From a bacterium (GTDB taxonomy: Bacteria > Patescibacteriota > Minisyncoccia > Phycocordibacterales > UBA2100), in contig JAUSGQ010000065.1 in NCBI GenBank assembly GCA_030674455.1, forward strand, positions 1-63,510: DNA of 63,510 bases, read 5' to 3'. The number at the start of each line of letters is the position of its first letter. The first letter of the stretch is position 1. Under the pieces are notes generated by a model. It saw only the letters and a program-made list of their open reading frames with translations, was not told where the DNA came from and did not search any database. This document shows positions 8,973 to 63,510 of this stretch, piece after piece. The position numbers and the translations under genes were made by a program.

Positions 8973-9260
8973 GTTAGATATTGTTATGAGCGAAGCGAAT
9001 TAGAATATCTTACACCCAGCACCTTTGTTTCATTAGGAAACGAAGGTGCTGGGTTAAGAAAAATATATTTCACTGCGTTCCATTATTTTTTTAAAAAAAG
9101 CGTCCGGCTGGTGCCGGAACTTACTTAATTAACATAGTCGATAATGACGTCCATGTCAACCTTATATGGTGCAAGTCAATAAAGGATCAGAATTCGCGAA
9201 ATTAGAGCGAGGTTTGAGATGATGAGAATGAAATTTCGCATCCCGAACTCGCTTTTAGCA

Positions 9261-9298
9261 GTTCCACAATCTCTCACGGTCGTGAGAGATTGTGGAAC
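9261..9298. repeat. perfect 18+18 palindrome with CTCACGGTCGTGAG core
   Basis: GTTCCACAATCTCTCACG gt CGTGAGAGATTGTGGAAC, downstream of the minus-strand PLP gene. Confidence 0.85.
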
Positions 9299-9335
9299 AT
9301 AGAGATATGTTTGTATATTGAGACGCGCGGCAAAG

Positions 9336-10475
9336 TTATCCCTTGAGCGCATTTGCGAGGTCTTCAATCAAATCTTCCGCGTCTTCGATTCCGGCTGAAA
9401 TGCGCACGACTTCTTCCGTTATGCCGGAGTTTTTAAGGCCGTCTTTGCCCATCGAAGCATGGCTCATGAACCACGGAGCTTCTATCAGCGATTCCACTCC
9501 ACCAAGCGACACCGTCAGGGAAAAATATTTCAATTTCTTAAAGAATGTTTTTAGCGGCACCTTTGCTGTATCAAGCTCAAACGTGACAATGCCGCCGAAA
9601 CCGGTCATTTGCTTTTTTATCAGGTCTTGCTGCGGATGGCTCCCCAGCCCGGGATAATACACGCGCTTCACATTCTTGTTGCTTTCCAAAAATTCCGCAA
9701 TTGCTTGCGCATTTTTCTGATGCGCTTCCATGCGCAGTGCCAGGGTCTTCACTCCGCGCGAGACAAGCCACGAGTCAAATGGCGAACCGGCAACCCCCGT
9801 GGCATTCACCAAGAAATTTCCGCGCTCCTGCAGTTCCTTGGTGGAATATACGATAGCGCCCCCCACAACGTCGCTGTGGCCGTTCAAATATTTCGTTGTC
9901 GAGTGAATCACAATGTCAACGCCAAGTTCCAATGGTTTCTGGAAGTAAGGGGACAAGAAAGTATTGTCAGCTACCGTCAGGATTTTATTGTTCTTCGCGA
10001 TGGCCACGACGCCCGCGATATCGGTAATGTGGAGAAAGGGGTTCGACGGCGTTTCTATCCAAATCATTTTGGTTTCCGGCGTTACGCTCTCTTTCACCGC
10101 ATCCAAGTCAGTCATGTCTATGAAGGTAAATTTGTAGCCAAGCGGTTTTAGAACCTGGTCGAACAAGCGATATGTTCCGCCGTAGATATCGGTATTTGCG
10201 ACTATGTGGTCGCCTGGTTTCAATAGAAGCATGACAGTTGTGGTTGCCGCCATGCCGGTAGTGGTTATTGAGCAGCCGACTCCGCCTTCGAGCGCGGCGA
10301 TATTTTCTTCGAGCGCAGTGCGCGTTGGATTCCCGCTGCGCGTGTAGTCGTAGCCTTTGTTTTTCCCGAGTTCATCGAAAGAAAAAACCGAAGTAGCATA
10401 AATAGGCGTCGTAACCGCGTTGAAGGTCGTATCCTTTTTCGTGCCCGTGTGTACTGCTTTTGTACGAAACTTCAT
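9336..10475 (-). CDS. Cys/Met-metabolism PLP enzyme (cystathionine beta-lyase/gamma-synthase family)
   Basis: MKFRTKAVHTG..., TTPIYATSVFSF, and the PLP-lysine context HSTTKYLNGHSDVVGG. The 379-aa size fits the MetB/MetC class. Confidence 0.85.
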   Translation of the reverse strand: MKFRTKAVHTGTKKDTTFNAVTTPIYATSVFSFDELGKNKGYDYTRSGNPTRTALEENIAALEGGVGCSITTTGMAATTTVMLLLKPGDHIVANTDIYGGTYRLFDQVLKPLGYKFTFIDMTDLDAVKESVTPETKMIWIETPSNPFLHITDIAGVVAIAKNNKILTVADNTFLSPYFQKPLELGVDIVIHSTTKYLNGHSDVVGGAIVYSTKELQERGNFLVNATGVAGSPFDSWLVSRGVKTLALRMEAHQKNAQAIAEFLESNKNVKRVYYPGLGSHPQQDLIKKQMTGFGGIVTFELDTAKVPLKTFFKKLKYFSLTVSLGGVESLIEAPWFMSHASMGKDGLKNSGITEEVVRISAGIEDAEDLIEDLANALKG

Positions 10476-26302: not shown

Positions 26303-26353
26303 GTGGAAAAAATAATTATATATACCGATGGGGGAGCGAGAAATAATCGCTAG
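26303..26353 (+). pseudogene. relic 5' fragment of a divergent rnhA allele
   Basis: VEKIIIYTDGGARNNR* compared with intact MTRLVIYTDGGARNNPGP. Seven of the 10 shared codons differ, and all differences are synonymous. Confidence 0.55.
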
Positions 26354-26465
26354 GCCACCTGGGAAACCCACGGTTTTCCCATTCCTTCCTCCACGGGAAA
26401 ACAATTGTTTTCCTGACCCCTTTCAAGGCCCCGGATTATTTTGTGATGTATAGTTAAGCGATAAT

Positions 26466-26882
26466 ATGACAAGGCTTGTAATCTATACAGATGGTGGTGC
26501 ACGAAACAATCCGGGGCCCGCTGGCGCGGGAGCTGTCATCATTGATGGCGCCAAAAAAATCGAAATAAAGAAATTTCTCGGCAATCAGACTAATAATTGG
26601 GCAGAATACGAAGCGGTTGCGCTCGCACTTGCGGAGGCAAAAAAGCGCGGGTTTGCAAAACGCGCAATTGAAGTGCGGCTCGACAGCCAGCTTGTCGCCG
26701 AACAGCTCTCGAATCACTACCAGATAAAGGAGGAAACGCTCTGGCCGCAGTATATGAAAGTACACAATCTACTGGTCGCGAATTTTCCGGACGCGGTTTT
26801 TAATTATGTTCCCAGAGAGCAAAATAAAGAAGCAGACCGGCTTGTGAACGAAGCAATCGATGAAGCGAATTCCCCGAGGTAA
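26466..26882 (+). CDS. rnhA: ribonuclease HI
   Basis: IYTDGGARNNPGPAGAGAVI, TNNWAEYEAVALAL and NKEADRLVN. Confidence 0.9.
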   Translation: MTRLVIYTDGGARNNPGPAGAGAVIIDGAKKIEIKKFLGNQTNNWAEYEAVALALAEAKKRGFAKRAIEVRLDSQLVAEQLSNHYQIKEETLWPQYMKVHNLLVANFPDAVFNYVPREQNKEADRLVNEAIDEANSPR

Positions 26883-32831: not shown

Positions 32832-32853
32832 CAGGATTTGCAGGAATTTTCTC

Positions 32854-32895
32854 GAATCATCTTCAAATGTCCGGCCGGACATTTGAAGATGATTC
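32854..32895. promoter_or_regulatory. 42-nt perfect palindrome with ATGTCCGGCCGGACAT core
   Basis: GAATCATCTTCAAATGTCCGG/CCGGACATTTGAAGATGATTC, between the rpsG stop and the stop of the minus-strand regulator. Confidence 0.85.
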
Positions 32896-32915
32896 GACTG
32901 ATGCCGTCCTCACTT

Positions 32916-33470
32916 CTAAAGTCGAAACAATTTGCGCAATCGTTCCTCTCCCTCAATGTGGTCCAGAACTCCGTACAAGACGTAACGAGACAGTTGCGAT
33001 TCCGCCTTTATTAACTGGATGAGCTCATTGCATTCGTGTGGAAATATCCAAACGCTTTGCTGAAGCTTTACAAAACCCGCCCGCTTCAGGATGTCACGTA
33101 TCTTACGTCGTAACGGGGCATATATCTCAGGAATGTCGAAAATCGCTACACGCCATTTATGGTCCCATTTCTGGGTTTTAAGAAGACCAAATGTCTTTGA
33201 GACTGTCTCCCCGAGTGCGGTCCGACCGTTGTCTGTAATTGAGAGACGTGCTCCCGCAGAGTTAATGTAATTGAGTTCAATCAAACGATCGAGCGCGCGT
33301 TTTCGTCTATGCCGATATGCCGCACGTTCATGCGCGAGTTTATAGAAACGCCTTGTTGACCGAGCAGAAAGCAAGAAGCCGTAGAGAATATCTCCAAGAG
33401 ATAGTTCGGAAAGTATTTCGCGCTCTATTGCACCGAGCCCGTGCGTTTTGTGTTTTCCTGAGCGACGCAT
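32916..33470 (-). CDS. wHTH regulator with PaaX-C/Cas2-fold-like domain (paralogue of 21411..21977)
   Basis: KWRVAIFDIPEIYAPLRRKIRDILKRAGFVKLQQSVWIFPHE. The ATG at 33470 is preferred, because the track start lies inside the upstream palindrome. Confidence 0.7.
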   Translation of the reverse strand: MRRSGKHKTHGLGAIEREILSELSLGDILYGFLLSARSTRRFYKLAHERAAYRHRRKRALDRLIELNYINSAGARLSITDNGRTALGETVSKTFGLLKTQKWDHKWRVAIFDIPEIYAPLRRKIRDILKRAGFVKLQQSVWIFPHECNELIQLIKAESQLSRYVLYGVLDHIEGEERLRKLFRL

Positions 33471-33517
33471 GATGTCATCATGACATGTCCGGCCGGACAA
33501 TCAATGATGACATGTGG
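33470..33517. promoter_or_regulatory. imperfect palindrome with the same ATGTCCGGCCGGACA core
   Basis: GATGTCATCATGACATGTCCGG/CCGGACAATCAATGATGACATG. Confidence 0.7.
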
Positions 33518-33565: not shown

Positions 33566-34336
33566 ATGGCTTACGCGGTTCTGGAGAAGACGCTCGATTA
33601 TTTTTTGCACCCGAAGAACTCGTGGCTGTACGGACATGATGTGCAACGGGCGATGACTGCTTTTTCCGGCTCGCCCGACCCTTTACCAGTGCATGGATTG
33701 GATTTCTTTATCGATTGGTTCGCCTTTGATTTTCAATTTCGGCCGGATAAGAATCTTTTGAGGTACGCAGGCGAATCAAACCCCATGCAATTCGGCGATG
33801 ATGAGCTCGCGGCTCTTCGAGAAATTGCCGAGAACAATCGCTACGATTTCTTTGAAGCCATTTCCTTCGGCAAAAAAATTCCTACCGAACTCAAATCAGT
33901 TCGCGACGGAAATTCGTATGTACTTTCCACGGAGAATAGGATACGGAAGGTTCGGGTCGGAGAAGTAGTCGTGTGCCGCATCGGGCGGGTAGGCGACGCG
34001 TGGCATCTCATGATGGATCAGGGAGTCGGTATGTATCGGCCGGGTGCGCGCGATAGGCGGCACATGCGCAAGGATTTTCCCGTATTCAATTCGCAGGTCG
34101 TATGGCGGGAAATCGTTTCTGCCAACGCTGTTCTTCTCGATGCTGAAGCAATGCCCGACGGAGAGATGCTTGTTTCGGGCTTTGCTCCTGGAAATTCTCA
34201 TCAAGAAGACGACGATTGCCCGATTTGCCGGGCGATGAGAAAAGCGAAAGCAGAAAAGCGCAAACTCACGCACCAGGAACTGACGGATGCTTTCGCCGAG
34301 GCGAATAAAGAAAAAGACAAGAAAAGCAAAAACTAA
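33566..34336 (+). CDS. hypothetical protein with C-terminal CPICR / Lys-rich tail
   Basis: ATG start and a 256-aa ORF with coding-like composition. No family recognised. Confidence 0.5.
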   Translation: MAYAVLEKTLDYFLHPKNSWLYGHDVQRAMTAFSGSPDPLPVHGLDFFIDWFAFDFQFRPDKNLLRYAGESNPMQFGDDELAALREIAENNRYDFFEAISFGKKIPTELKSVRDGNSYVLSTENRIRKVRVGEVVVCRIGRVGDAWHLMMDQGVGMYRPGARDRRHMRKDFPVFNSQVVWREIVSANAVLLDAEAMPDGEMLVSGFAPGNSHQEDDDCPICRAMRKAKAEKRKLTHQELTDAFAEANKEKDKKSKN

Positions 34337-34370
34337 ATCCGCCACACCTCTAAGATTATGCTCGAGGAAT

Positions 34371-34416
34371 GCATATGACTCTAGCTTACCCGGCCGGGTA
34401 AGCTAGAGTCATATGC
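34371..34416. terminator. 46-nt perfect palindrome with CCCGGCCGGG centre
   Basis: GCATATGACTCTAGCTTACCCGG/CCGGGTAAGCTAGAGTCATATGC. Confidence 0.7.
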
Positions 34417-34531
34417 CGATGGACAAGCCGTGGCCCATGGGCTCGGTTTCAATCGATGTCCTCGTCTCTTCACTTTTTATAAATTTGCGGTATTATCCCT
34501 GCACGCCTCGGGCGTTTTTTATTTAACTACT

Positions 34532-34639
34532 ATGGCAAGAGACTACCCATTGGAGAAAGTCCGTAACTTCGGAACCCCGATACCGCAGCGCTACGCGCTG
34601 GCTACGGGGCAGGTCATCGCCCACAATTACACAATATGA
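34532..34639 (+). pseudogene. relic fusA 5' end, readable as a 35-codon uORF whose TGA overlaps the fusA ATG
   Basis: MARDYPLEKVRNFG + 13 inserted codons + VIAH..., compared with intact MSRDYPLEKVRNFGIIAH. ATGA overlap at 34636-34639. Confidence 0.55.
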
Positions 34640-36777
34640 GCAGGGATTATCCATTAGAGAAAGTAAGAAATTTTGGGATTATAGCGCATATCGACGCGGG
34701 GAAGACGACTACTTCCGAGCGCATTCTTTTTTATACCGGAATGTCGCACAAAATCGGCGAGGTGCATGAAGGCAACACGGTAACCGACTGGATGGAGCAG
34801 GAGCGCGAGCGCGGCATCACCATCACCGCCGCCGCCATTACCTGTTTCTGGGTCCCAACCTATCGGGGCGCAGATATTTCCGCGAAAGTGCGGTTCAATA
34901 TTATTGATACCCCCGGCCACATCGACTTCACTTCGGAAGTAAAGCGTTCAATGCGCGTCCTCGATGGCGCAGTCGTCGTGTTCGACGGCGTTGCCGGCGT
35001 GGAGCCGCAATCAGAAACCAACTGGCGCTACGCCGAGGAAGCCGAAGTGCCGCGCATTTGCTACATCAACAAGCTCGACCGCACCGGCGCGTCGTTCGAG
35101 AAATCGTACGCGAGCATTTTGGAGCGGCTCTCAACCAAAGCAGTGCGCATGCAAATTCCTATCGGGCTCGAAGACAAATTCGAGGGCGTTGTGGATTTGC
35201 TCACGATGAAGGCGTTTCACTTTGAAGGAGAAATGGGTGCCCAAGTTGTCGCAGGCGAAATTCCGGCGAACCTGAAAGACGAGGCCGAAATACTCCGACA
35301 CGAACTCGTTGAAAGAATCGTCGAAAACGACGACGCACTCATGCAGGAATATCTTGAAGGAAAGGAAATAGCGGTAGATGTTCTGAAGAAAGCGCTTCGT
35401 AAGGCCGTCGTTGAGAACAAAATCTTTCCGGTCTACACCGGTTCGTCTCTCAAAAATAAAGGGGTGCAGCTGGTCTTGGACGGCGTCGTGGATTATCTTC
35501 CGAGCCCGCTCGATTTGCCTGCGGCAAAGGGCCACAATCCCGACACAATGGAGCCGGAGACCAGAGTTTCCGACGATGCGGCGCCTTTTGCCGCGCTCGT
35601 CTTCAAACTGCAGGTTGACCCGTTCGTCGGCGCGCTCTCATTCTTCCGCGTTTACTCGGGCTCCATCAAAGCCGGTGATTTTATATACAACGCGACCACG
35701 CGAAAGAAGGAGCGATTGGGACGCATCGTTCGTTTGCAGGCAGACAAGCGCGAGGATTTGAAGGAGGTGTTCGCGGGAGAAATTGCCGCCGGTGTCGGAC
35801 TCAAAGAAGTGAAAATAGGCCAGACGCTCTGCGATGAGAACCACCCGATTATTTTGGAAGCAATCATATTCCCCGAGCCGGTCATATCAATGCGCATCGA
35901 GCCGAAGACGAAAGTCGACCAGGAGAAAATGGGCATGGCGCTCTCGCGTCTTTCCGACGAAGACCCGACGTTCCGCGTCGCTTCCGACCCCGAAACTCTT
36001 GAAACTATTGTTTCCGGCATGGGCGAGCTTCACCTCGAAATTATCGTTGACCGCATGCGCCGAGAATTTGGCGTCGAAGCTACCACCGGCAAACCGCAAG
36101 TCGCATATCGCGAAACGGTGCAAGGTTCTGCCGACGTGGAGTACAAGCACATCAAACAGACAGGCGGCCGCGGCCAGTACGGCCACGTGAAAATCCGCGT
36201 GAAGCCGATGGAACCGCTCGTTGAAGGTAAGAAATTGAAGAACAACGTTGACCGGGAAGACCACTTCGAATTCATCAACGCCATCAAAGGAGGCGTTATT
36301 CCGCAGGAATACATTCAGCCGGTGAAGAAGGGAATAATAGAAGCAATGGAACGCGGCATTCAGGCGGGATTCCCTGTAGTAGATGTTTCAGTGGAACTCT
36401 ACGACGGCTCCTACCACGATGTCGACTCTTCAGAAATCGCTTTCAAACTCGCCGCAATCAACGCGATGCAGGAGGCGATGCGCCAGGCGAAGCCGGTACT
36501 CCTCGAGCCGATTATGAAACTGGAGGTTGTTACGCCTGAGAAGTTCATGGGCGATGTCACAGGAAGCATCAACTCAAAGCGCGGCCAGATAGAAGCGATG
36601 GGCGAGCGCGGGCAAGTGAAAGTCATCACCGCGAAAGTCCCGCTCTCCGAGCTTTTCGGCTTCACGACGCAGCTGCGCTCTCTCACGGAAGGCCGCGCTG
36701 TTCCGAACTTGGAATTTTCTCACTATGCGATAGTGCCAAAGAATGTGGCGGATGAAATTGTTGCTTCACGGAAGTAA
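34636..36777 (+). CDS. fusA: elongation factor G
   Basis: NFGIIAHIDAGKTT, DTPGHIDF and NKLDR, with EF-G domains IV/V. Confidence 0.97.
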   Translation: MSRDYPLEKVRNFGIIAHIDAGKTTTSERILFYTGMSHKIGEVHEGNTVTDWMEQERERGITITAAAITCFWVPTYRGADISAKVRFNIIDTPGHIDFTSEVKRSMRVLDGAVVVFDGVAGVEPQSETNWRYAEEAEVPRICYINKLDRTGASFEKSYASILERLSTKAVRMQIPIGLEDKFEGVVDLLTMKAFHFEGEMGAQVVAGEIPANLKDEAEILRHELVERIVENDDALMQEYLEGKEIAVDVLKKALRKAVVENKIFPVYTGSSLKNKGVQLVLDGVVDYLPSPLDLPAAKGHNPDTMEPETRVSDDAAPFAALVFKLQVDPFVGALSFFRVYSGSIKAGDFIYNATTRKKERLGRIVRLQADKREDLKEVFAGEIAAGVGLKEVKIGQTLCDENHPIILEAIIFPEPVISMRIEPKTKVDQEKMGMALSRLSDEDPTFRVASDPETLETIVSGMGELHLEIIVDRMRREFGVEATTGKPQVAYRETVQGSADVEYKHIKQTGGRGQYGHVKIRVKPMEPLVEGKKLKNNVDREDHFEFINAIKGGVIPQEYIQPVKKGIIEAMERGIQAGFPVVDVSVELYDGSYHDVDSSEIAFKLAAINAMQEAMRQAKPVLLEPIMKLEVVTPEKFMGDVTGSINSKRGQIEAMGERGQVKVITAKVPLSELFGFTTQLRSLTEGRAVPNLEFSHYAIVPKNVADEIVASRK

Positions 36778-37358: not shown

Positions 37359-37410
37359 CGAATTAGCAAATTCGTGGCTCGGCCCGAATTAGCAAATTCG
37401 TGGCTCGGCC
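37359..37410 (+). promoter_or_regulatory. perfect 2 x 26-nt tandem repeat, each unit containing the palindrome CGAATTagcaAATTCG
   Basis: CGAATTAGCAAATTCGTGGCTCGGCC at 37359-37384 and 37385-37410, 90 nt upstream of the A2M start. Confidence 0.8.
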
Positions 37411-37499: not shown

Positions 37500-40400
37500 A
37501 TGGACCCTGTGCCAAACCGCATTTCAACCGAGCCTGTTTTGCATCCAGACGTTGCCCCCATCGGCACGCCGCAACATCATTATCGGTGGAAGAAGGTCGT
37601 GATTTTCGGCATCGTTCTAATTCTATTTCTTGCCGGCATTCTCGCTAAGAGTATTTTGGGAGGGACATCGTTCTCTACTCCAAAAACAAATTACGTTCCT
37701 GTCTATACGCTCGTGAATGAAAAGATTTCCGAACACGGTGCAATAATAATTAATTTACCCAAGGGAGTCTCTCAAAAGGGAGCGGAAACAAAAGTATCTT
37801 TTGACCCCGGTATTGCAGGAGAGTGGATTGAATCAGATTTGCCGAACGCGGTAGTGTATAAACCCGCCGCCGCGCTCGCACTCGGCAAGCATTACAACGT
37901 TGCCCTCGCGACGGACGCGGGCGCAATCAAGAAAGATTTCTTGGTTGATGAAGACCCGCGCGTTGTGAGCGTTTTCCCCGATTCAAATGCGGAGGCGGAG
38001 CTCGCTTCGGCAATTACGGTTGTCTTTAACAGGCCGATGGTTCCACTTACGACACTCTCTGAATTGGATAAAAAAGATGTCCCGGTTTCCGTTTCTCCGG
38101 CGACACCCGGAAAATTCAAATGGATAAGCACGCGGACTCTGCAATTTATTCCCTCAGCGACGCTATATGGCTCCTCTCATTACACGGTAACCGTCAATCC
38201 AGGATTCATTTCAATGGACGGGATTTCGGTCGCGCCTAAAACGTTTTCATTTAGGACAAAACAACTTCGTCTTAACAGCTCGACATCCGGCACTATCGTC
38301 TATAACGAGCCCATCAATTTCTATTTCAACCAGCCGGTAGATATACAGAAAACTTCCGGAGAAATAAAGGTCATAAATAACGCAACAAATGCCCAGATAG
38401 AATTTGTCGCAAGCTACGGCACTTCTTATATTTGGGACGCGAATAATAATTCCGAAAGAGAAGTTCAGGACAAATCTATCGTCAGTATTCTCCCCAAGAA
38501 TTCCAAGAACGGCCATTCAAACGTGTGGGACTTTTCGACTCCCTATACCGCTACGATAAAAACTGCGTACCCGATTGGCGGGGACATAGCGCTTACCGGT
38601 AATGTTCCGCCTCTAACGGTCGGCGCGCCCCCCGGATCCATTGGTTTTGCACCGCTTGTGCCGGGTGGAAGGTATCCATACCCTGTGCCGCAATCGTTTA
38701 ATAATCCTGGTATGGTTCCGCCACAATTGCCGAGTGTCTTTCCGGGAAACTCTGGAGGTTCGGCCGCGATTGCAACGGTGACCACAAGTCCAGTATTGAA
38801 AAGCGTTACCGTCCTTTCCGAAAATACCACCCTGGCCTCGCCCCAGCTTTTTGACCCTACCGGGACCACGACCTTTTCTTTTTATGAAGACATAGACAAA
38901 GAGAAGAGTGGCATAAACGCCAAGGGATTAAAGAATATCGAGTACGGCGAGAAATGCGAGGAAGAAAACAGCGAGGGATATTATTCGAAATCCTGTAAGA
39001 AAGTTAAAGACAAATCACAGCTCATCTTTACTTTTGATGCCTCTGTATACGCGAGTGGAGAAAAAGTGCCGGTTACATTTGAACGCCTGATAAACGCAGG
39101 CGGATACCAGGTGAATACTGAGCCAATCGTTACGGAGCTCACGGTGTACCCGCAGTTGCGCATAACCTCGACTACGCCTGCAAACAATACCGATGGAGCG
39201 AGCGTAAAAGATTTAATCCTCTGCACCAACACTCCCCTGAAAGAATTGGACGGAAAGAAATTTCACGCTGCATTCAAAGCCAACAAGTACATGGTTTTTG
39301 GACGAAAGGATAACCCCTATTTACAAACAAATAATTATTGGGAAAAACCGCGGCCATGCGCTATCGGCGATTACGTAAACAGAATTCATTACGGCCTTCA
39401 TCCGGAGCAGGCGTATGCCATAAATGCCTCTATCGAAGATGTGTTCGGGCAGAAAGCGAATACGCAACTTTCTTTCACGACTGGAAAAGCGCCCAAATTC
39501 TATCTGCGATTCCAGAGTTTGCAGAAAATCTACAATGTCACAACGCCCGAACGCACGAAACTCACGTATGCTACGGAGAATTTCGATTACGTTGACCTTT
39601 CTATATGCAAAGTGAGCGCCGATTCAATGGTTCGCATTCTTGCGGCGCAACCGAGCGACACGAGCACTGCGTCAAATGGCTCCCTTCCGTGCCTCATTTC
39701 GCAATACAAGCAGATTCCGCTGAAACCCGACCAGTGGGTGAACCAATATTTCCAAATAGACCTAAAGGATTATTTTCCGGACCCGCGCGGGCAGTTCATT
39801 CTTTCCTACAGCCATCCGCAGTATGTGAACCGGGAAGGCCTGCCGCTCTACGCGAGAACGTATTTGAGCGTTACTAACTTGGCCGTTGTGGAAAAGCGCG
39901 TTAAATGGTCTTCCTATGACAATCTGCCTGATGTGCCAAGCACAGTCGACCCCGCAACGCGCGGTTCCGTTTACTGGGTGAGCCGGATGCATTCAATGGA
40001 GCCAGAAAATGCGGCATCGGTGAACGTATACAAATCGGGCGGAGCGGATAGATGGGGCAACAACAATACGACAGTGCCGCCCATACTTGCGCTATCGGGT
40101 GCCACGAATGCAAGTGGTTTCGGAGAGTTTCCACTCATTGCGGATGTCGTTGGTGCTGCTGTCATGAGCGGTCCGTCTACAGGTGCCGACGCTAACTCCG
40201 TCGGCCAGGAATCGGCGGTGGTATCCACGTGGGTGGACACAATAAGCAATAACAGTTGGCGGAATGCATATCAGAACGAGAAGATGTATGTGTATACCGA
40301 CAGACCTATTTATCGGCCCGGCCAGGAAGTCTTTATTAAAGGCTTGTACCGATTGGACTTTGACGGGGTTTTTGAAGTATTCCGCGATGCCGATGTAAAA

Positions 40401-46671: not shown

Positions 46672-47868
46672 ATGGCAGAATTTAATCGAACAAAGCCGCA
46701 CGTAAACGTCGGCACAATCGGTCACGTCGACCACGGAAAGACCACTTTGACTGCGGCGATTTTGCACGTCCTCTCGAAGGCGGGCAATGGATACTCGGCG
46801 ACCGTCAAAGGTGTTGACGACATCGACAAGGCGCCTGAAGAGAAAGCGCGAGGCATTACTATCTCGCTCTCTCACTCCGAATACGAGACACCAACTCGCC
46901 ACTACGCGCACGTGGACGCTCCCGGCCACGCCGACTATATAAAGAACATGATTACCGGCGCCGCACAGATGGACGGCGCGATTTTGGTTGTTGCCGCGTC
47001 CGACGGCGTGATGCCGCAGACTCGCGAGCACATCTTGCTCGCCCGTCAAGTCGGCGTGCCGAAGGTCATCGTGTTCCTCAACAAAGTCGACCAAGTTGAC
47101 GACAAAGACCTCGTTGACCTCGTCGAGGAAGAGGTGCGAGAGCTTCTCACTAAATACGAATTTGACGGCAAGAACACCCCTGTTATCCGCGGTTCAGGCC
47201 TTAAGGCGCTTGAAACTCCGGAGCCGGGCAACGAGTGGTCGGGCAAGGTGATGGAACTCATCAAGGCGCTCGACGAGTTTATTCCGATACCGAAGCGCGA
47301 AATCGACAAGCCGTTTTTGATGCCAATCGAAGACGTGTTCTCAATTGAAGGACGCGGCACTGTAGTCACCGGCCGTATTGAACGCGGAGCCATAAAGGTT
47401 GGCGCGGAAGTTGAGATCGTCGGCATCGTCGACACCACGAAGACGATTGTCACCGGAATTGAAATGTTCAACAAATCGCTCCAGGAAGGGCAGGCAGGCG
47501 ACAACGCCGGAGTACTTTTGCGCGGAACGAAGAAAGACGACGTGCACCGCGGCCAAGTTCTTGGCGCGCCGGGTACAGTGAAGCCGCACACAGAATTTGA
47601 GTCGGAAGTTTACATCTTGACCAAAGAGGAAGGAGGCCGTCACACGCCGTTCTTCACCGGATACAAGCCGCAGTTCTACATGAGAACGACAGACGTTACC
47701 GGCGAAGTGACGCTTAAGGAAGGCGTTGAAATGGTTATGCCTGGCGACACCGTTACATTCAAAGTGAAACTCGTGGGCCCGATCGCAATCGAGGAACAAC
47801 AGCGCTTCGCGATTCGTGAGGGAGGTAAAACAGTTGGCGCTGGTGTAGTGACTAAGGTTGTAGCTTAA
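46672..47868 (+). CDS. tuf: elongation factor Tu
   Basis: [18 protein letters not shown] and NKVD, with a full-length match to the EF-Tu pattern. Confidence 0.98.
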
Positions 47869-47904: not shown

Positions 47905-47958
47905 AGGGAAGGAGGCAAGACGGTTGGAGCGGGGGTAGTTACCAAAGTAGTGGCATAG
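47905..47958 (+). pseudogene. relic tuf 3' end (17 codons plus stop)
   Basis: [17 protein letters not shown] repeats the tuf C-terminus. 15 of 18 codons differ and none changes the amino acid. Confidence 0.6.
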
Positions 47959-59782: not shown

Positions 59783-60214
59783 ATGTCCGAAGATACAAAG
59801 ATAACAGCAGGAGCAGAGCCAGTGGTAGAGCAAGTGGCTGAAGTTCCTGCGAAGTTCAAGAAGCTCGTAGAGGAAGTAGAAAAGATGACGGTCTTGGAAT
59901 TAAACGAACTGGTTAAAGTTCTCGAAAAGAAATTCGGCGTGTCGGCGCAAGCTGCAGCCGCCGGCCCCGCCTCCGCCCAGGCTTCGGCGGGCGAGGAAGA
60001 GAAAAGCGAGTTCAATGTTGAACTCACAGCAGTCGGCGAGCAGAAAATCGCAGTCATCAAGGTGGTGAAGGAAGTTCTCGCACTTGGCCTCAAGGAAGCG
60101 AAAGACCTAGTAGAAAGCGCCCCCGCGATGCTGAAGGAGGGTGTAAAGAAAGAAACAGCAGACGAGTGGAAAAAGAAGATTGAGACAGCGGGTGGAAAAG
60201 TTACGTTGAAGTAA
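59783..60214 (+). CDS. rplL: 50S ribosomal protein L7/L12 with ~20-aa N-terminal extension
   Basis: [42 protein letters not shown] and GGKVTLK*. Confidence 0.9.
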
Positions 60215-60278: not shown

Positions 60279-60302
60279 CGTGGAAAAGTCACTTTGAAAT
60301 AA
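60279..60302 (+). pseudogene. relic copy 2 of the rplL 3' end
   Basis: (R)GKVTLK* with synonymous changes and its own compensated hairpin AAAGTCACTT tgaaat AAGTGACTTT. Confidence 0.5.
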
Positions 60303-60373: not shown

Positions 60374-60397
60374 GGCGGTAAAGTTACGCTGAAATAA
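60374..60397 (+). pseudogene. relic copy 3 of the rplL 3' end
   Basis: GGC GGT AAA GTT ACG CTG AAA TAA encodes GGKVTLK*. Confidence 0.5.
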
Positions 60398-63375: not shown

Positions 63376-63510
63376 GGTTCTCAGAATTCCTTACGGGAGT
63401 TCTGAGTAAGGGCGTGCGGTGGATGCCTTGACTCTAAAGGGCGATGAAGGACGCGGCTTAGCTGCGATACGCTTCGGGGAGGTGCTATGCAACCTGCGAT
63501 CCGAAGATTT
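63376..63510 (+). rRNA. rrl: 23S rRNA, 5' end (partial, continues beyond the window)
   Basis: GGTGGATGCCTTGACTCTAAAGGGCGATGAAGGACGCGGCTTAGCTGCGATA matches the conserved 23S 5' domain (E. coli GGTGGATGCCCTGGCAGTCAGAGGCGATGAAGGACGTGCTAATCTGCGATA). The exact 5' end is uncertain (63376-63396). Confidence 0.85.

Follow-up and report, generated by a model that had tools for sequence, protein, structure and literature searches.

The fusA gene analysed here carries two versions of its own 5' end, and we consider it likely that the upstream version is the former live end of the gene, cut off by a short palindromic element and replaced downstream by a recoded tip. In the window, as we call the whole 63,510-nucleotide stretch of DNA that was analysed, the upstream copy reads ATG GCA AGA GAC TAC CCA TTG GAG AAA GTC CGT AAC TTC GGA and the tip of the live gene reads ATG AGC AGG GAT TAT CCA TTA GAG AAA GTA AGA AAT TTT GGG, with 104 nt from start to start and 62 nt, with no ORF in that gap, between the two tips (Table 1). 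They differ at 13 nucleotides (identity of about 71%), which amounts to nine synonymously different codons and one amino-acid change (A/S) among the 14, as a first-pass annotation of this DNA had counted; its observation that third positions are GC-rich in the upstream copy and AT-rich in the live tip is borne out by GC3 values of 0.57 and 0.36, respectively, against 0.66 for the remainder of fusA. Also present as that annotation had described them are the 35-codon uORF that opens with the second, divergent fusA start and ends on the live start codon as ATGA, and a 39-nt in-frame hairpin insertion within it, the core of which folds at -18.3 kcal/mol. The body of the gene is colinear, without gaps, with those of two related loci, L001 and L024. 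Deletion of 34574-34677 would restore a continuous fusA, and this, together with the element-free junctions of L001 and L024, suggests that these 104 nt form a single inserted unit. For annotation, the start of fusA should be placed at 34636 and the 35-codon ORF should not be named a gene.

Table 1. Features at the 5' end of fusA, in window coordinates.
Feature	Position	Strand	Basis or remark
Promoter-like site (TTCACT-16-TATTAT)	34469..34496	+	Consensus match only, function putative; sole promoter-like match in 34300-34760
Conserved leader hairpin (ACGCC-TCG-GGCGT), then T-run	34503..34523	+	Terminator-like match and fold
Displaced original fusA 5' tip, codons 1-14 (MARDYPLEKVRNFG)	34532..34573	+	Comparison with relatives
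35-codon uORF (old tip, element, remnant and NYTI)	34532..34639	+	TGA overlaps fusA ATG as ATGA
39-nt palindromic mobile element, hairpin core 34575-34609	34574..34612	+	In-frame translation TPIPQRYALATGQ
Putative 104-nt inserted unit (element, remnant, spacer and replacement tip)	34574..34677	+	Suggested by the layout
Remnant of old fusA codons 15-18 (GTC ATC GCC CAC = VIAH)	34613..34624	+	Comparison with relatives
11-nt junction/spacer AATTACACAAT preceding live start	34625..34635	+	
Replacement (live) fusA 5' tip, codons 1-14 (MSRDYPLEKVRNFG), AT-rich synonymous spelling	34636..34677	+	
fusA (EF-G, 713 aa), intact	34636..36777	+	All EF-G Pfam domains found

Comparison with relatives, which the first-pass annotation had proposed as the way to tell the native version, identifies the live tip as the outlier in the window. 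Against the live tip of the closest relative, L024, the upstream copy is identical at 36 of 39 positions and the window's live tip at only 25. The 14 differences of the live tip exceed the rate in codons 15-60 (15/138; Fisher p = 0.0009), with the boundary of excess divergence falling at codon 14/15, whereas the three differences of the upstream copy are like those of the adjacent gene body (p = 0.77). Relatives P0001 and P0003 begin with the same peptide as the upstream copy, and the best matches to the window's live tip among 80 species reach identities of only 31-33/39. The surroundings agree, as the leader hairpin motif sits 5' of the sole fusA start in L001 and 5' of the upstream copy in L024, with an equivalent promoter-like box 5' of that hairpin in both. 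Because the window, too, has this conserved leader in front of the upstream copy, that copy occupies the native position, and the notion that it is foreign junk can be set aside, since the leader stays with it and its divergence matches that of the gene body. Such a copy is present at only 3/81 related loci, with two different elements; it is missing from L001, and the one in L024 comes with a different element.

Between the element and the live start lies a further trace that may derive from the old gene. The first-pass annotation had matched the peptide VIAH to IIAH of EF-G, and the 12 nucleotides concerned are indeed identical to fusA codons 15-18 at eight positions in L024 and nine in L001. 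Taken alone this match is only suggestive, because 219 of 5000 shuffles of the spacer do as well (p about 0.04). Equivalent remnants 3' of the element at L083 (VDH), L096, L181 (KRV) and L082 (GGAGF) lend support to VIAH being what is left of the old codons.

The hairpin at fusA belongs to a dispersed family of mobile elements. A covariance model matches 34574-34614 with 57.7 bits (E = 2e-11) and finds only this one copy in the whole 63.5-kb window, while the element pattern matches more than 120 metagenome loci, part of them by chance. Members are about 40 nt long, with constant ends and a variable, covarying inner stem; the inner helix is 97% paired with 99 double changes, a degree of pairing reached in 0/500 shuffles. 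In four metagenomes, read depth spikes within 34573-34613 only, with unrelated flanks on both strands. The copies are dispersed and at times tandem, the antisense strand bears a GTAG-containing motif (CCCCGTAGC), and all three sense frames are open, with copies lying in frame inside intact ORFs at L103 (aspS), L111 (topA-like), L125 and L136. As regards the hallmarks of a MITE, the element consists of one hairpin, whose arms could count as inverted repeats, and has no other terminal inverted repeats; no short direct repeat or target duplication flanks it at the loci inspected. Two groups of matches were excluded from the evidence, namely chance pattern matches such as those to a tRNA gene (L134) and a dehydrogenase motif (L160), and a 29-nt class that forms non-coding arrays, seemingly of other organisms.

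Several candidate identities and vehicles for the element were rejected. Rfam 15 gave nothing at the gathering threshold over the window save the 23S end, and only noise at E <= 10 within 34300-34760; no known RNA family or riboswitch was found. No element-moving enzyme was found near the fusA insertion, and in the window and the short loci the neighbouring ORFs comprise one PaaX/Cas2-like protein and two unknowns, with no transposase domain among them. The window has no tRNA genes that would provide a tRNA/tmRNA attachment site, and viral contigs yielded nothing beyond chance matches and the 29-nt class, which speaks against a viral vehicle. Inteins or introns in fusA were likewise dismissed, as the longer tblastn spans in relatives prove to be the downstream tuf gene. 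Among the best 120 hits to EF-G there was none with the element translated in frame, though many were frameshifted or truncated fragments, and no record of an identical EF-G protein was found in other assemblies.

The arrangement at fusA recurs at other genes. In about 20 cases, tuf-type genes among them, such an element separates a displaced tip from a synonymously recoded live tip, in the order displaced tip, element, short remnant and spacer, recoded live tip and gene body. Fifteen curated cases lie at 5' ends, of fusA, tsaD (two), bipA-like, dnaE-like (two), smpB-like, murC-like, epimerase-like (three) and transketolase-like genes and others; 3' cases occur at L033 (two), L021, L117 and L102. 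The polarity is fixed, with the element in sense orientation at 5' ends and antisense at 3' ends, so that its 3' side faces the gene body, and this rule holds in 13/13 cases obtained by orientation-blind methods. A flank test of sense against antisense was confounded, since nucleotide repeats score on both strands, and the matter was settled by reading frames case by case. Across 11 tip pairs the differences are nearly all synonymous (pS 0.93, pN 0.058); the L033 pair differs at ten positions, all synonymous, and its stop codons also differ, and at L114 a serine codon switches from AGT to TCC between the tips. The window itself contains three further displaced tips (RNase H 5', tuf 3' and rplL 3') adjoining other hairpin-rich spacers. 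The displaced tuf tip is identical at 17/17 amino acids with 15/18 codons different, and the rplL tip exists in three copies, two of them displaced and arrayed, as at L033. A second element family is involved as well, in that the fusA duplication of L024 has a different element, common to the window's RNase H case; this one comprises two hairpins and lies at 26354-26465 in the window. The host group is made up of tiny groundwater Patescibacteria. Literature searches on the phenomenon, the element and its sequence turned up no relevant work, and element-linked displaced, recoded gene tips appear to be undescribed.

The reading that we favour is thus the first of two offered by the first-pass annotation, a relic of terminal replacement after disruption by a palindrome, and it gains from the dispersed nature of the element, the native character of the upstream copy and the recurrence at other genes and at 3' ends. 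A mobile palindrome of about 39 nt would have come to sit between old codons 14 and 15, followed on its 3' side by four more old codons, the 11-nt junction and a new start with 14 recoded codons joined in frame to an otherwise unchanged fusA. The 104 nt of 34574-34677 would then behave as one insertion, element first and replacement tip after, in a miniature analogue of integrative elements that bear a replacement gene end. Both tips would have evolved as coding sequence before being joined, and the live tip would most likely stem from the allele of a related lineage, recombined in together with the element. We infer this foreign source, as we do the movement of the unit as a cassette and the way in which such a cassette first arises. 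Against import stands the fact that no donor lineage of the window's live tip was found among the tips of 80 species. Displaced and live tips have lineage-specific residues in common (TKVVA in the window's tuf, the fusA tail at L033), so donors would have to be fairly close relatives with saturated synonymous sites. We propose that near-identical tip pairs are lost by recombination, so that only well-diverged pairs persist. The AT-richness of the live tip could stem in part from selection for an unstructured initiation site beside a strong hairpin.

How the gene would be expressed in its present form can be proposed from the position of its signals. The live start has neither a Shine-Dalgarno sequence nor a good -10 box in its spacer (34625-34635), and SD-like motifs precede only 5/38 genes of the window. 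The distance from uORF stop to live ATG lies between -20 and +11 nt in all 14 cases, none of which has the uORF fused in frame. The exact ATGA overlap occurs in 5/14, an excess over a hand-estimated chance ceiling of about 0.19 per case that is not significant by itself. Stop-start translational coupling of the uORF and fusA is likely, judging from this layout. Transcription would begin at the old promoter and leader (34469-34523), and ribosomes would initiate at the old ATG, read through the hairpin, open as it is in all sense frames, terminate at the TGA within ATGA and begin again at the live ATG. Such a route would make the uORF a by-product, not a regulator, and it is as a by-product that it probably feeds ribosomes to fusA.

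Of the competing explanations, the one that would make the arrangement illusory is an assembly or binning artefact in which the fusA 5' ends of two strains were stitched together. The window does derive from a metagenome and its two copies differ as alleles of different strains would, but a single, independent 285-nt unitig in run X1 covers 34471-34755 with 0 differences and at an even depth (32.7, with 35-38 in adjacent unitigs), so that the duplication, which the first-pass annotation had feared might collapse once reads were mapped across it, is not an assembly chimera. In addition, there is no 31-mer common to both copies that might mis-join them, a contig from run X2, which is unrelated, is arranged likewise and differs at 7 of 85 nt, and the arrangement recurs in L043 and L147, from another lineage, and in L024. 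We give the artefact next to no credence. A more serious contender, though still unlikely, is an origin in situ, by which a short region around the fusA start (about -11 to codon 18) was duplicated in tandem, the element entered the first copy, and the two copies then diverged in place, with no foreign DNA. The codon 15-18 remnant and short spacer resemble the end of a simple tandem duplication, the AT shift of the live tip could reflect selection for an open initiation region, and the residues common to displaced and live tips fit as well. The analogous unit at L033, moreover, is present twice with lengths of exactly 114 nt, a coincidence more suggestive of tandem duplication than of two separate imports. 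In a dead copy, however, changes should be spread over every kind of site, with an expected non-synonymous to synonymous ratio of about 1.8, and the ratio observed is 0.22 (14.8 versus 67.2 differences; pN/pS 0.06). At fusA the supposedly dead copy has changed less relative to L024 than the constrained live one (3/39 against 14/39), a near-identical pair is seen in none of the roughly 20 cases, and the AGT to TCC switch at L114 is unreachable by single synonymous steps.

Two further explanations assign the arrangement a role in translation. The uORF might be a selected regulatory peptide whose EF-G-like N-terminus or hairpin senses a signal and tunes fusA, a proposal close to the second reading of the first-pass annotation, that of a translationally coupled leader mimicking EF-G. 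It is true that the uORF retains an intact start and 13/14 EF-G N-terminal residues, stops on ATGA and has a similar counterpart in the distant lineage L043. Mimicry as a purpose nevertheless sits poorly with the absence of the upstream copy from 78/81 fusA loci, L001 included, with the two different elements at the three that have it, and with the same architecture at unrelated genes and, in mirror image, at 3' ends, where a leader is impossible. The hairpin, for its part, occurs as a dispersed repeat, within ORFs and elsewhere, and Rfam holds no matching cis-regulatory family. We regard a functional leader as improbable, and of that second reading retain only the coupling, as a likely consequence of where the uORF stops fall. 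Less probable again, and to our minds very much so, is a programmed translational bypass with take-off at Gly-14 (GGA) before the hairpin and landing at the downstream Gly-14 (GGG), after the manner of T4 gene 60 or the mitochondrial byp elements. In Magnusiomyces mitochondria, ribosomes hop over small GC-rich palindromes (byp elements), and at fusA a Gly codon stands directly 5' of a stable hairpin with a matching Gly codon 104 nt downstream. Yet the take-off GGA is followed by ACC and not by a stop, the element is open in frame, and an ATG of its own with a complete recoded tip makes hopping needless. Insertion sites at other genes, moreover, lack consistent matching flanking codons, and in the 3' cases the element, antisense and past the stop, cannot involve hopping.

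With terminal replacement as the preferred reading of fusA, a broader proposal can be advanced, tentatively and in the awareness that it may well prove wrong. Patescibacteria would host families of gene-less 'insert-and-rescue' cassettes of about 100 nt, each a conserved hairpin with a synonymously recoded target terminus. These would enter essential genes (such as fusA, tuf, rplL, tsaD, dnaE and gyrB) at the 5' or 3' end without killing them, leave arrays of displaced native tips, and spread between related lineages by recombination with the displaced tip and gene body as homology arms, possibly via small circular intermediates. If this cassette reading is true, it would define a new class of selfish element, a natural analogue of self-rescuing integrative elements on about 1/100 of the scale. 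The principle of an element-carried gene end, known to us only from large integrase-bearing islands (e14/icd, SXT/prfC), would thereby extend to about 100 nt without a gene of its own. Should the pattern hold genome-wide, essential translation genes of ultra-small bacteria would be repeatedly struck by tiny hairpins and saved by replacement termini, and many odd short ORFs and "partial" genes in CPR annotations would be accounted for. Displaced tips would then mark sites of inter-lineage recombination, and fusA would be a natural instance in which an organism that lacks Shine-Dalgarno sequences expresses an essential gene by stop and restart.

Among known systems, the Rickettsia palindromic elements (RPE) insert within protein-coding genes, stay open in frame and are translatable, and the review of them does not bring up coupling, start codons, or gene tips that were displaced or recoded (PMC10969869). 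The element described here likewise lies in ORFs in a translation-compatible manner (aspS at L103, topA-like at L111, L125 and L136). It differs from the RPE, which are simple in-frame insertions of about 100-150 bp in alphaproteobacteria, in its length of about 40 nt, its patescibacterial host and its lack of an Rfam match. REP/REPIN sequences are short (~35-40 nt) imperfect palindromes mobilised by RAYT (HUH Y1), and IS200/IS605-derived palindromic elements also exist. The likeness to REPs extends to the short imperfect palindrome, a conserved sequence beside a conserved stem, dispersed copies and the GTAG-containing antisense motif; REPs, however, are extragenic by definition, whereas the copies described here sit in coding or former coding sequence (the fusA tip, aspS at L103, topA-like at L111). 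We know of no association of REPs with duplicated, recoded gene ends.

The overlap of stop and start has a parallel in the MIRUs of Supply et al. (1997), which are reportedly small operon repeats whose short ORFs overlap flanking stop and start codons and so allow translational coupling, much as uORF stop and live ATG share an ATGA in five of the 14 cases above. Unlike the fusA unit, MIRUs are tandem minisatellites between different genes, with neither a downstream N-terminus copy nor this hairpin. In Rhs/CdiA polymorphic toxins, a new C-terminal tip displaces the old one, which is left in an orphan array beside the live gene, and the arrays of two displaced tips at L033 and at the window's rplL resemble these orphan modules; the toxin tips, however, are kilobases long and encode different toxins, whereas here the peptide is the same and only its spelling varies between tips.

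Like the fusA unit, prophage e14 (E. coli icd, 3' end, with icdC as the fragment left behind), SXT (prfC, 5' end) and the dusA-targeting islands land in the end of a housekeeping gene. In the e14/icd and SXT/prfC type, a new terminus (a new start for 5' insertions) keeps the gene working and the displaced native end is left as a fragment, as is also found at fusA. The element-borne and displaced icd ends of e14 differ mostly by synonymous changes (PMC13626634), as do the tip pairs reported here. Islands of this type, however, are 10-100 kb long, encode an integrase or recombinase and cargo, and separate the two gene ends by their full length, with attL/attR flanks. The units described here, in contrast, are about 100 nt long and gene-less and are marked by a 40-nt hairpin, their tips lie 60-150 nt apart, and many different genes, at both their ends, are struck.

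A repeat finder returns, at the start of fusA, a 42-nt direct repeat (71% identical, 104 nt apart) whose members both encode M-x-RDYPLEKVRNFG; the two copies of the 5' end reported in the first-pass annotation are thus present and specify the same peptide save residue x. The hairpin between them, the VIAH codons behind it and the upstream frame (uORF) that stops on the fusA start, also reported there, are all read in the window sequence. The downstream ORF encodes a full-length EF-G in which all domains are present. In this groundwater member of the Patescibacteria (Paceibacteria/Kaiserbacteria-like), fusA follows rpsL, rpsG, a PaaX/Cas2-like ORF on the opposite strand and a 256-aa ORF without assigned function, the latter two interrupting the usual rpsG-fusA neighbourhood. 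On both sides of the PaaX/Cas2-like ORF, and also 3' of the 256-aa ORF, there are long palindromes; two of these are perfect 46-mers centred on CCGGCCGG.

Positions of the fusA start features, of further displaced tips and of other landmarks in the window
Feature	Position	Sequence or remark
Upstream fusA copy	34532-34573	ATGGCAAGAGACTACCCATTGGAGAAAGTCCGTAACTTCGGA
Hairpin between the fusA tips	34575-34609	CCCCGATACCGCAGCGC-TAC-GCGCTGGCTACGGGG
VIAH remnant, then stretch up to live start		GTCATCGCCCAC, then AATTACACAAT
Live fusA tip	34636-34677	ATGAGCAGGGATTATCCATTAGAGAAAGTAAGAAATTTTGGG
uORF	34532-34639	ends on TGA of ATGA (34636-34639)
PaaX/Cas2-like ORF	32916-33500	minus strand
Palindromes	32852-32897, 33472-33513, 34371-34416	
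RNase H-like gene	26466-26882	live tip MTRLVIYTDGGARNNPG
RNase H-like displaced 5' tip	26303-26353	VEKIIIYTDGGARNNR, then stop
RNase H-like spacer	26354-26465	~110 nt; two hairpins, GGGAAACCCACGGTTTTCCC and ACGGGAAAACAATTGTTTTCCTGACCCCTTTC
tuf	46672-47868	live 3' tip 47815-47868
tuf displaced 3' tip	47905-47958	90 nt downstream
rplL (L7/L12)	ends 60214	live tip 60194-60214
rplL displaced 3' tips	60282-60302, 60377-60397	
Exact 26-nt tandem repeat	37359-37410	just 5' of a 2262-aa ORF starting at 37500
23S rRNA gene, 5' end	63396-63510	right edge of the window

Which copy is native was assessed against the live fusA of the closest relative (L024, EF-G 85% identical). Over codons 2-14 the upstream copy differs from this reference at 3 of 39 positions and the live tip at 14 of 39, with 15 differences in 138 positions of the gene body (codons 15-60). 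The live tip therefore exceeds the adjacent body in divergence (Fisher p = 0.0009) whereas the upstream copy does not (p = 0.77), and the excess stops at codon 14/15, the exact position of the element in the upstream copy. A conserved leader, consisting of a -10-like box, a small hairpin and a T-run, lies 5' of the upstream copy in the window and in L024 and 5' of the sole copy in a third fusA locus (L001), and the EF-G proteins of close relatives start MARDYPLEKVRNFG, as the upstream copy does. Together, the divergence, the leader and the relatives' N-termini identify the upstream copy as the gene body's former tip and live codons 1-14 as the newcomer, in support of the earlier suggestion of a terminal-replacement relic. 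Deleting 34574-34677 (104 nt) would restore a continuous fusA. Displaced and live tips, as seen at the window's tuf and at the fusA tail of L033, share lineage-specific residues although they are spelled as differently as tips of distant lineages; no donor lineage for the live fusA tip emerged among the tips of 80 species.

The hairpin is a dispersed element. When contigs of four metagenomes were mapped to the region, depth spikes were limited to 34573-34613 and stemmed from dozens of contigs, on both strands, with mutually disagreeing flanks. A scan of the metagenome collection by the two conserved ends alone (CCCCGRTACC and GCTACGGGG) matched at least 120 loci, against about 300 chance matches expected by our own estimate for a collection of such size, and some matches are due to chance, for instance those in a tRNA gene and in a dehydrogenase motif. 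The matches sort into length classes, with the window copy in a 31-41-nt class from Patescibacteria-like contexts; a 29-nt class, forming non-coding tandem arrays and probably belonging to other phyla, was left out of the evidence together with the chance matches. Copies of that class (CCCCGGTACCATCTKCCGGAGCTACGGGG-CAGGC; seven in L132, others in L115, L143, L190 and elsewhere) recur with a 33-nt array period, intermixed with degenerate variants in non-coding DNA, and a few lie on viral contigs. Within the family the ends are constant and the inner helix varies through compensatory changes: pairing is kept in 97% of cells versus 80% in shuffles, and 99 cells are changed on both sides, values that none of 500 shuffles reached. 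A covariance model trained on 42 copies recovers the window copy (34574-34614, 57.7 bits) and no second copy in the 63.5 kb. Rfam holds no family resembling it, and literature searches, including with the element's own sequence, found nothing.

A second fusA 5' end occurs in only 3 of 81 related fusA loci, namely the window, L024 and L043, the last from a distant Lloydbacteria-like lineage in which this element sits at the identical codon boundary. The duplication is tied to the element rather than to fusA, and the same anatomy is found among metagenome loci at unrelated genes: tsaD (two instances, identical site), a BipA/TypA-like GTPase (element immediately ahead of the P-loop), two dnaE-like genes, an smpB-like and a murC-like gene, three Rossmann-type epimerase-like genes (between V and TGGAGFIG), a transketolase-like gene and further genes. 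The order in these 5' cases is constant: a start codon and N codons, the element without a stop in any sense frame, another 3-12 of the gene's codons, a short spacer, and then a new ATG with the complete gene, whose first codons respell the upstream peptide. The element also occurs as a plain in-frame insertion in intact ORFs (aspS in L103, a topA-like ORF in L111, and L125 and L136). Many related genomes carry, on long contigs, EF-G N-terminal ORFs of only 85-146 aa (P0045, P0050, P0062, P0067, P0086, P0090 and P0100) that continue out of frame past about residue 70-120; frameshifts, sequencing errors or additional disrupted copies are possible explanations.

A mirror image exists at 3' ends, where the covariance model places copies just 3' of fusA on the opposite strand in two loci, L033 and L021. 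Behind the live C-terminus of L033, ...VPENVAKEIIETRK(TAA), two displaced tips stand in a row: a spacer and an antisense element lead to (V)PENVAKEIIETRK(TAG), and a second spacer and element lead to (V)PENVAKEIIDIRK(TGA). The repeat period is exactly 114 nt, twice. Single 3' cases are L021, L117 (gyrB/parE-like) and L102. With the element read in its own direction, the displaced tip always lies on the 5' side and the live tip with the gene body on the 3' (CAGG) side, a rule kept in 13/13 cases from orientation-blind methods. Separately, locus L006 holds at 9225-9371, 3 kb downstream of its live fusA, a second copy of the last ~48 fusA codons, nearly identical in protein and with no element of the modelled family adjoining.

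When the window was scanned blind for short peptide duplications in recoded form, inspection and gene naming of the results gave three further cases, at the RNase H-like gene, tuf and rplL, bringing gene ends with displaced tips to four in 63.5 kb. The two-hairpin element at the RNase H-like gene shares homology with the spacer in the fusA 5' duplication of L024. The tuf tips agree at 17/17 residues and differ at 15/18 codons, with stops TAA and TAG; both end TKVVA, absent in 28/28 other lineages, and their 36-nt spacer contains an imperfect hairpin of a third kind. Of the rplL C-terminal GKVTLK plus stop there are three copies, one live and two displaced, separated by hairpin-rich spacers. 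Since the fusA, RNase H-like and tuf spacers carry different hairpins, displaced tips are associated with no fewer than three element families.

An assembly artefact, raised earlier as a possible chimera of two strains, is a poorly supported explanation of the fusA duplication, as a single 285-nt unitig spans 34471-34755 with no differences (from a run holding 74% of the region's words) at a depth of 32.7, that of the neighbouring unitigs, and a second, unrelated run shows the arrangement again on a contig that differs at 7 positions in 85 nt. The proposal that the uORF is a regulatory leader of fusA mimicking the EF-G N-terminus fares no better, given the rarity of second 5' ends among fusA loci and the same anatomy at unrelated genes; ribosome hopping across the element is also poorly supported. 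In 14/14 cases the uORF stop falls between -20 and +11 nt relative to the live ATG, with exact ATGA overlaps in five (an excess not significant by itself) and in-frame fusions in none, positions that fit termination-reinitiation at the live ATG. Shine-Dalgarno (SD) sequences are all but absent from the organism, and SD-like motifs precede only 5 of 38 window genes. Because the live fusA start, which also lacks an SD, has no good -10 box, the gene is probably transcribed from the old promoter through the hairpin, after which there is no T-run. At many window gene starts (e.g. 15633, 16871, 55170, 60633) a -10-like box stands 6-11 nt ahead of the ATG, suggestive of widespread leaderless or very short-leader mRNAs.

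Across 11 old/new tip pairs we counted 67 synonymous and 15 non-synonymous differences (pS 0.93, pN 0.058), a non-synonymous to synonymous ratio of 0.22 versus the ~1.8:1 that we calculate from site counts for dead-DNA drift from an identical duplicate. No near-identical pair was seen among the cases compared, and one pair shows a Ser AGT/TCC switch; the tips were therefore already different when brought together, each apparently shaped as coding sequence. Selection on both tips at the protein level after duplication is hard to imagine for 3' tips, as the displaced ones sit behind stop codons.

Starting from the observed anatomy, the recurrent element family, its polarity, the way the tips diverge and the identity of the outlying tip, we propose that element, remnant, spacer and replacement tip act as one cassette. 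The cassette would be a circularly permuted piece (-11 ... tip ... element ... codon 18) of an allele bearing the element, entering by recombination within the tip, either Campbell-like or as a double crossover with the displaced tip and gene body as arms. Such recombination would account for the observed order, for the fixed polarity, for both remnant and short spacer, and for arrays of equal-length units. The replacement tip may come from a related lineage, with the same protein tip and saturated synonymous sites, and similarly spelled pairs would be lost through recombination between repeats, which would explain the absence of near-identical pairs. For a gene's first cassette, possible routes are element insertion, short tandem duplication and precise loss of one element, or homology-facilitated illegitimate recombination. 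An in-situ origin of the duplicated tips keeps some probability; the identical length of both L033 units would suit a tandem duplication better than two separate imports. No mobilising enzyme was found among the ORFs neighbouring the fusA site.

No account of gene termini duplicated in recoded form next to a hairpin turned up in the literature searches; that these duplications are a new class of self-rescuing mini-cassettes is a tentative idea and, on balance, rather doubtful. In form the element resembles MITEs; REPs, which are extragenic; and RPEs, which differ in size, sequence and host. In outcome it resembles integrative elements with replacement gene ends, such as e14, whose insertion in icd left behind the icdC fragment, differing mainly at synonymous sites (PMC13626634). 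The large integrase-bearing elements follow the same replacement-end principle, but they carry integrase and cargo, whereas the unit here is ~100 nt without any gene.
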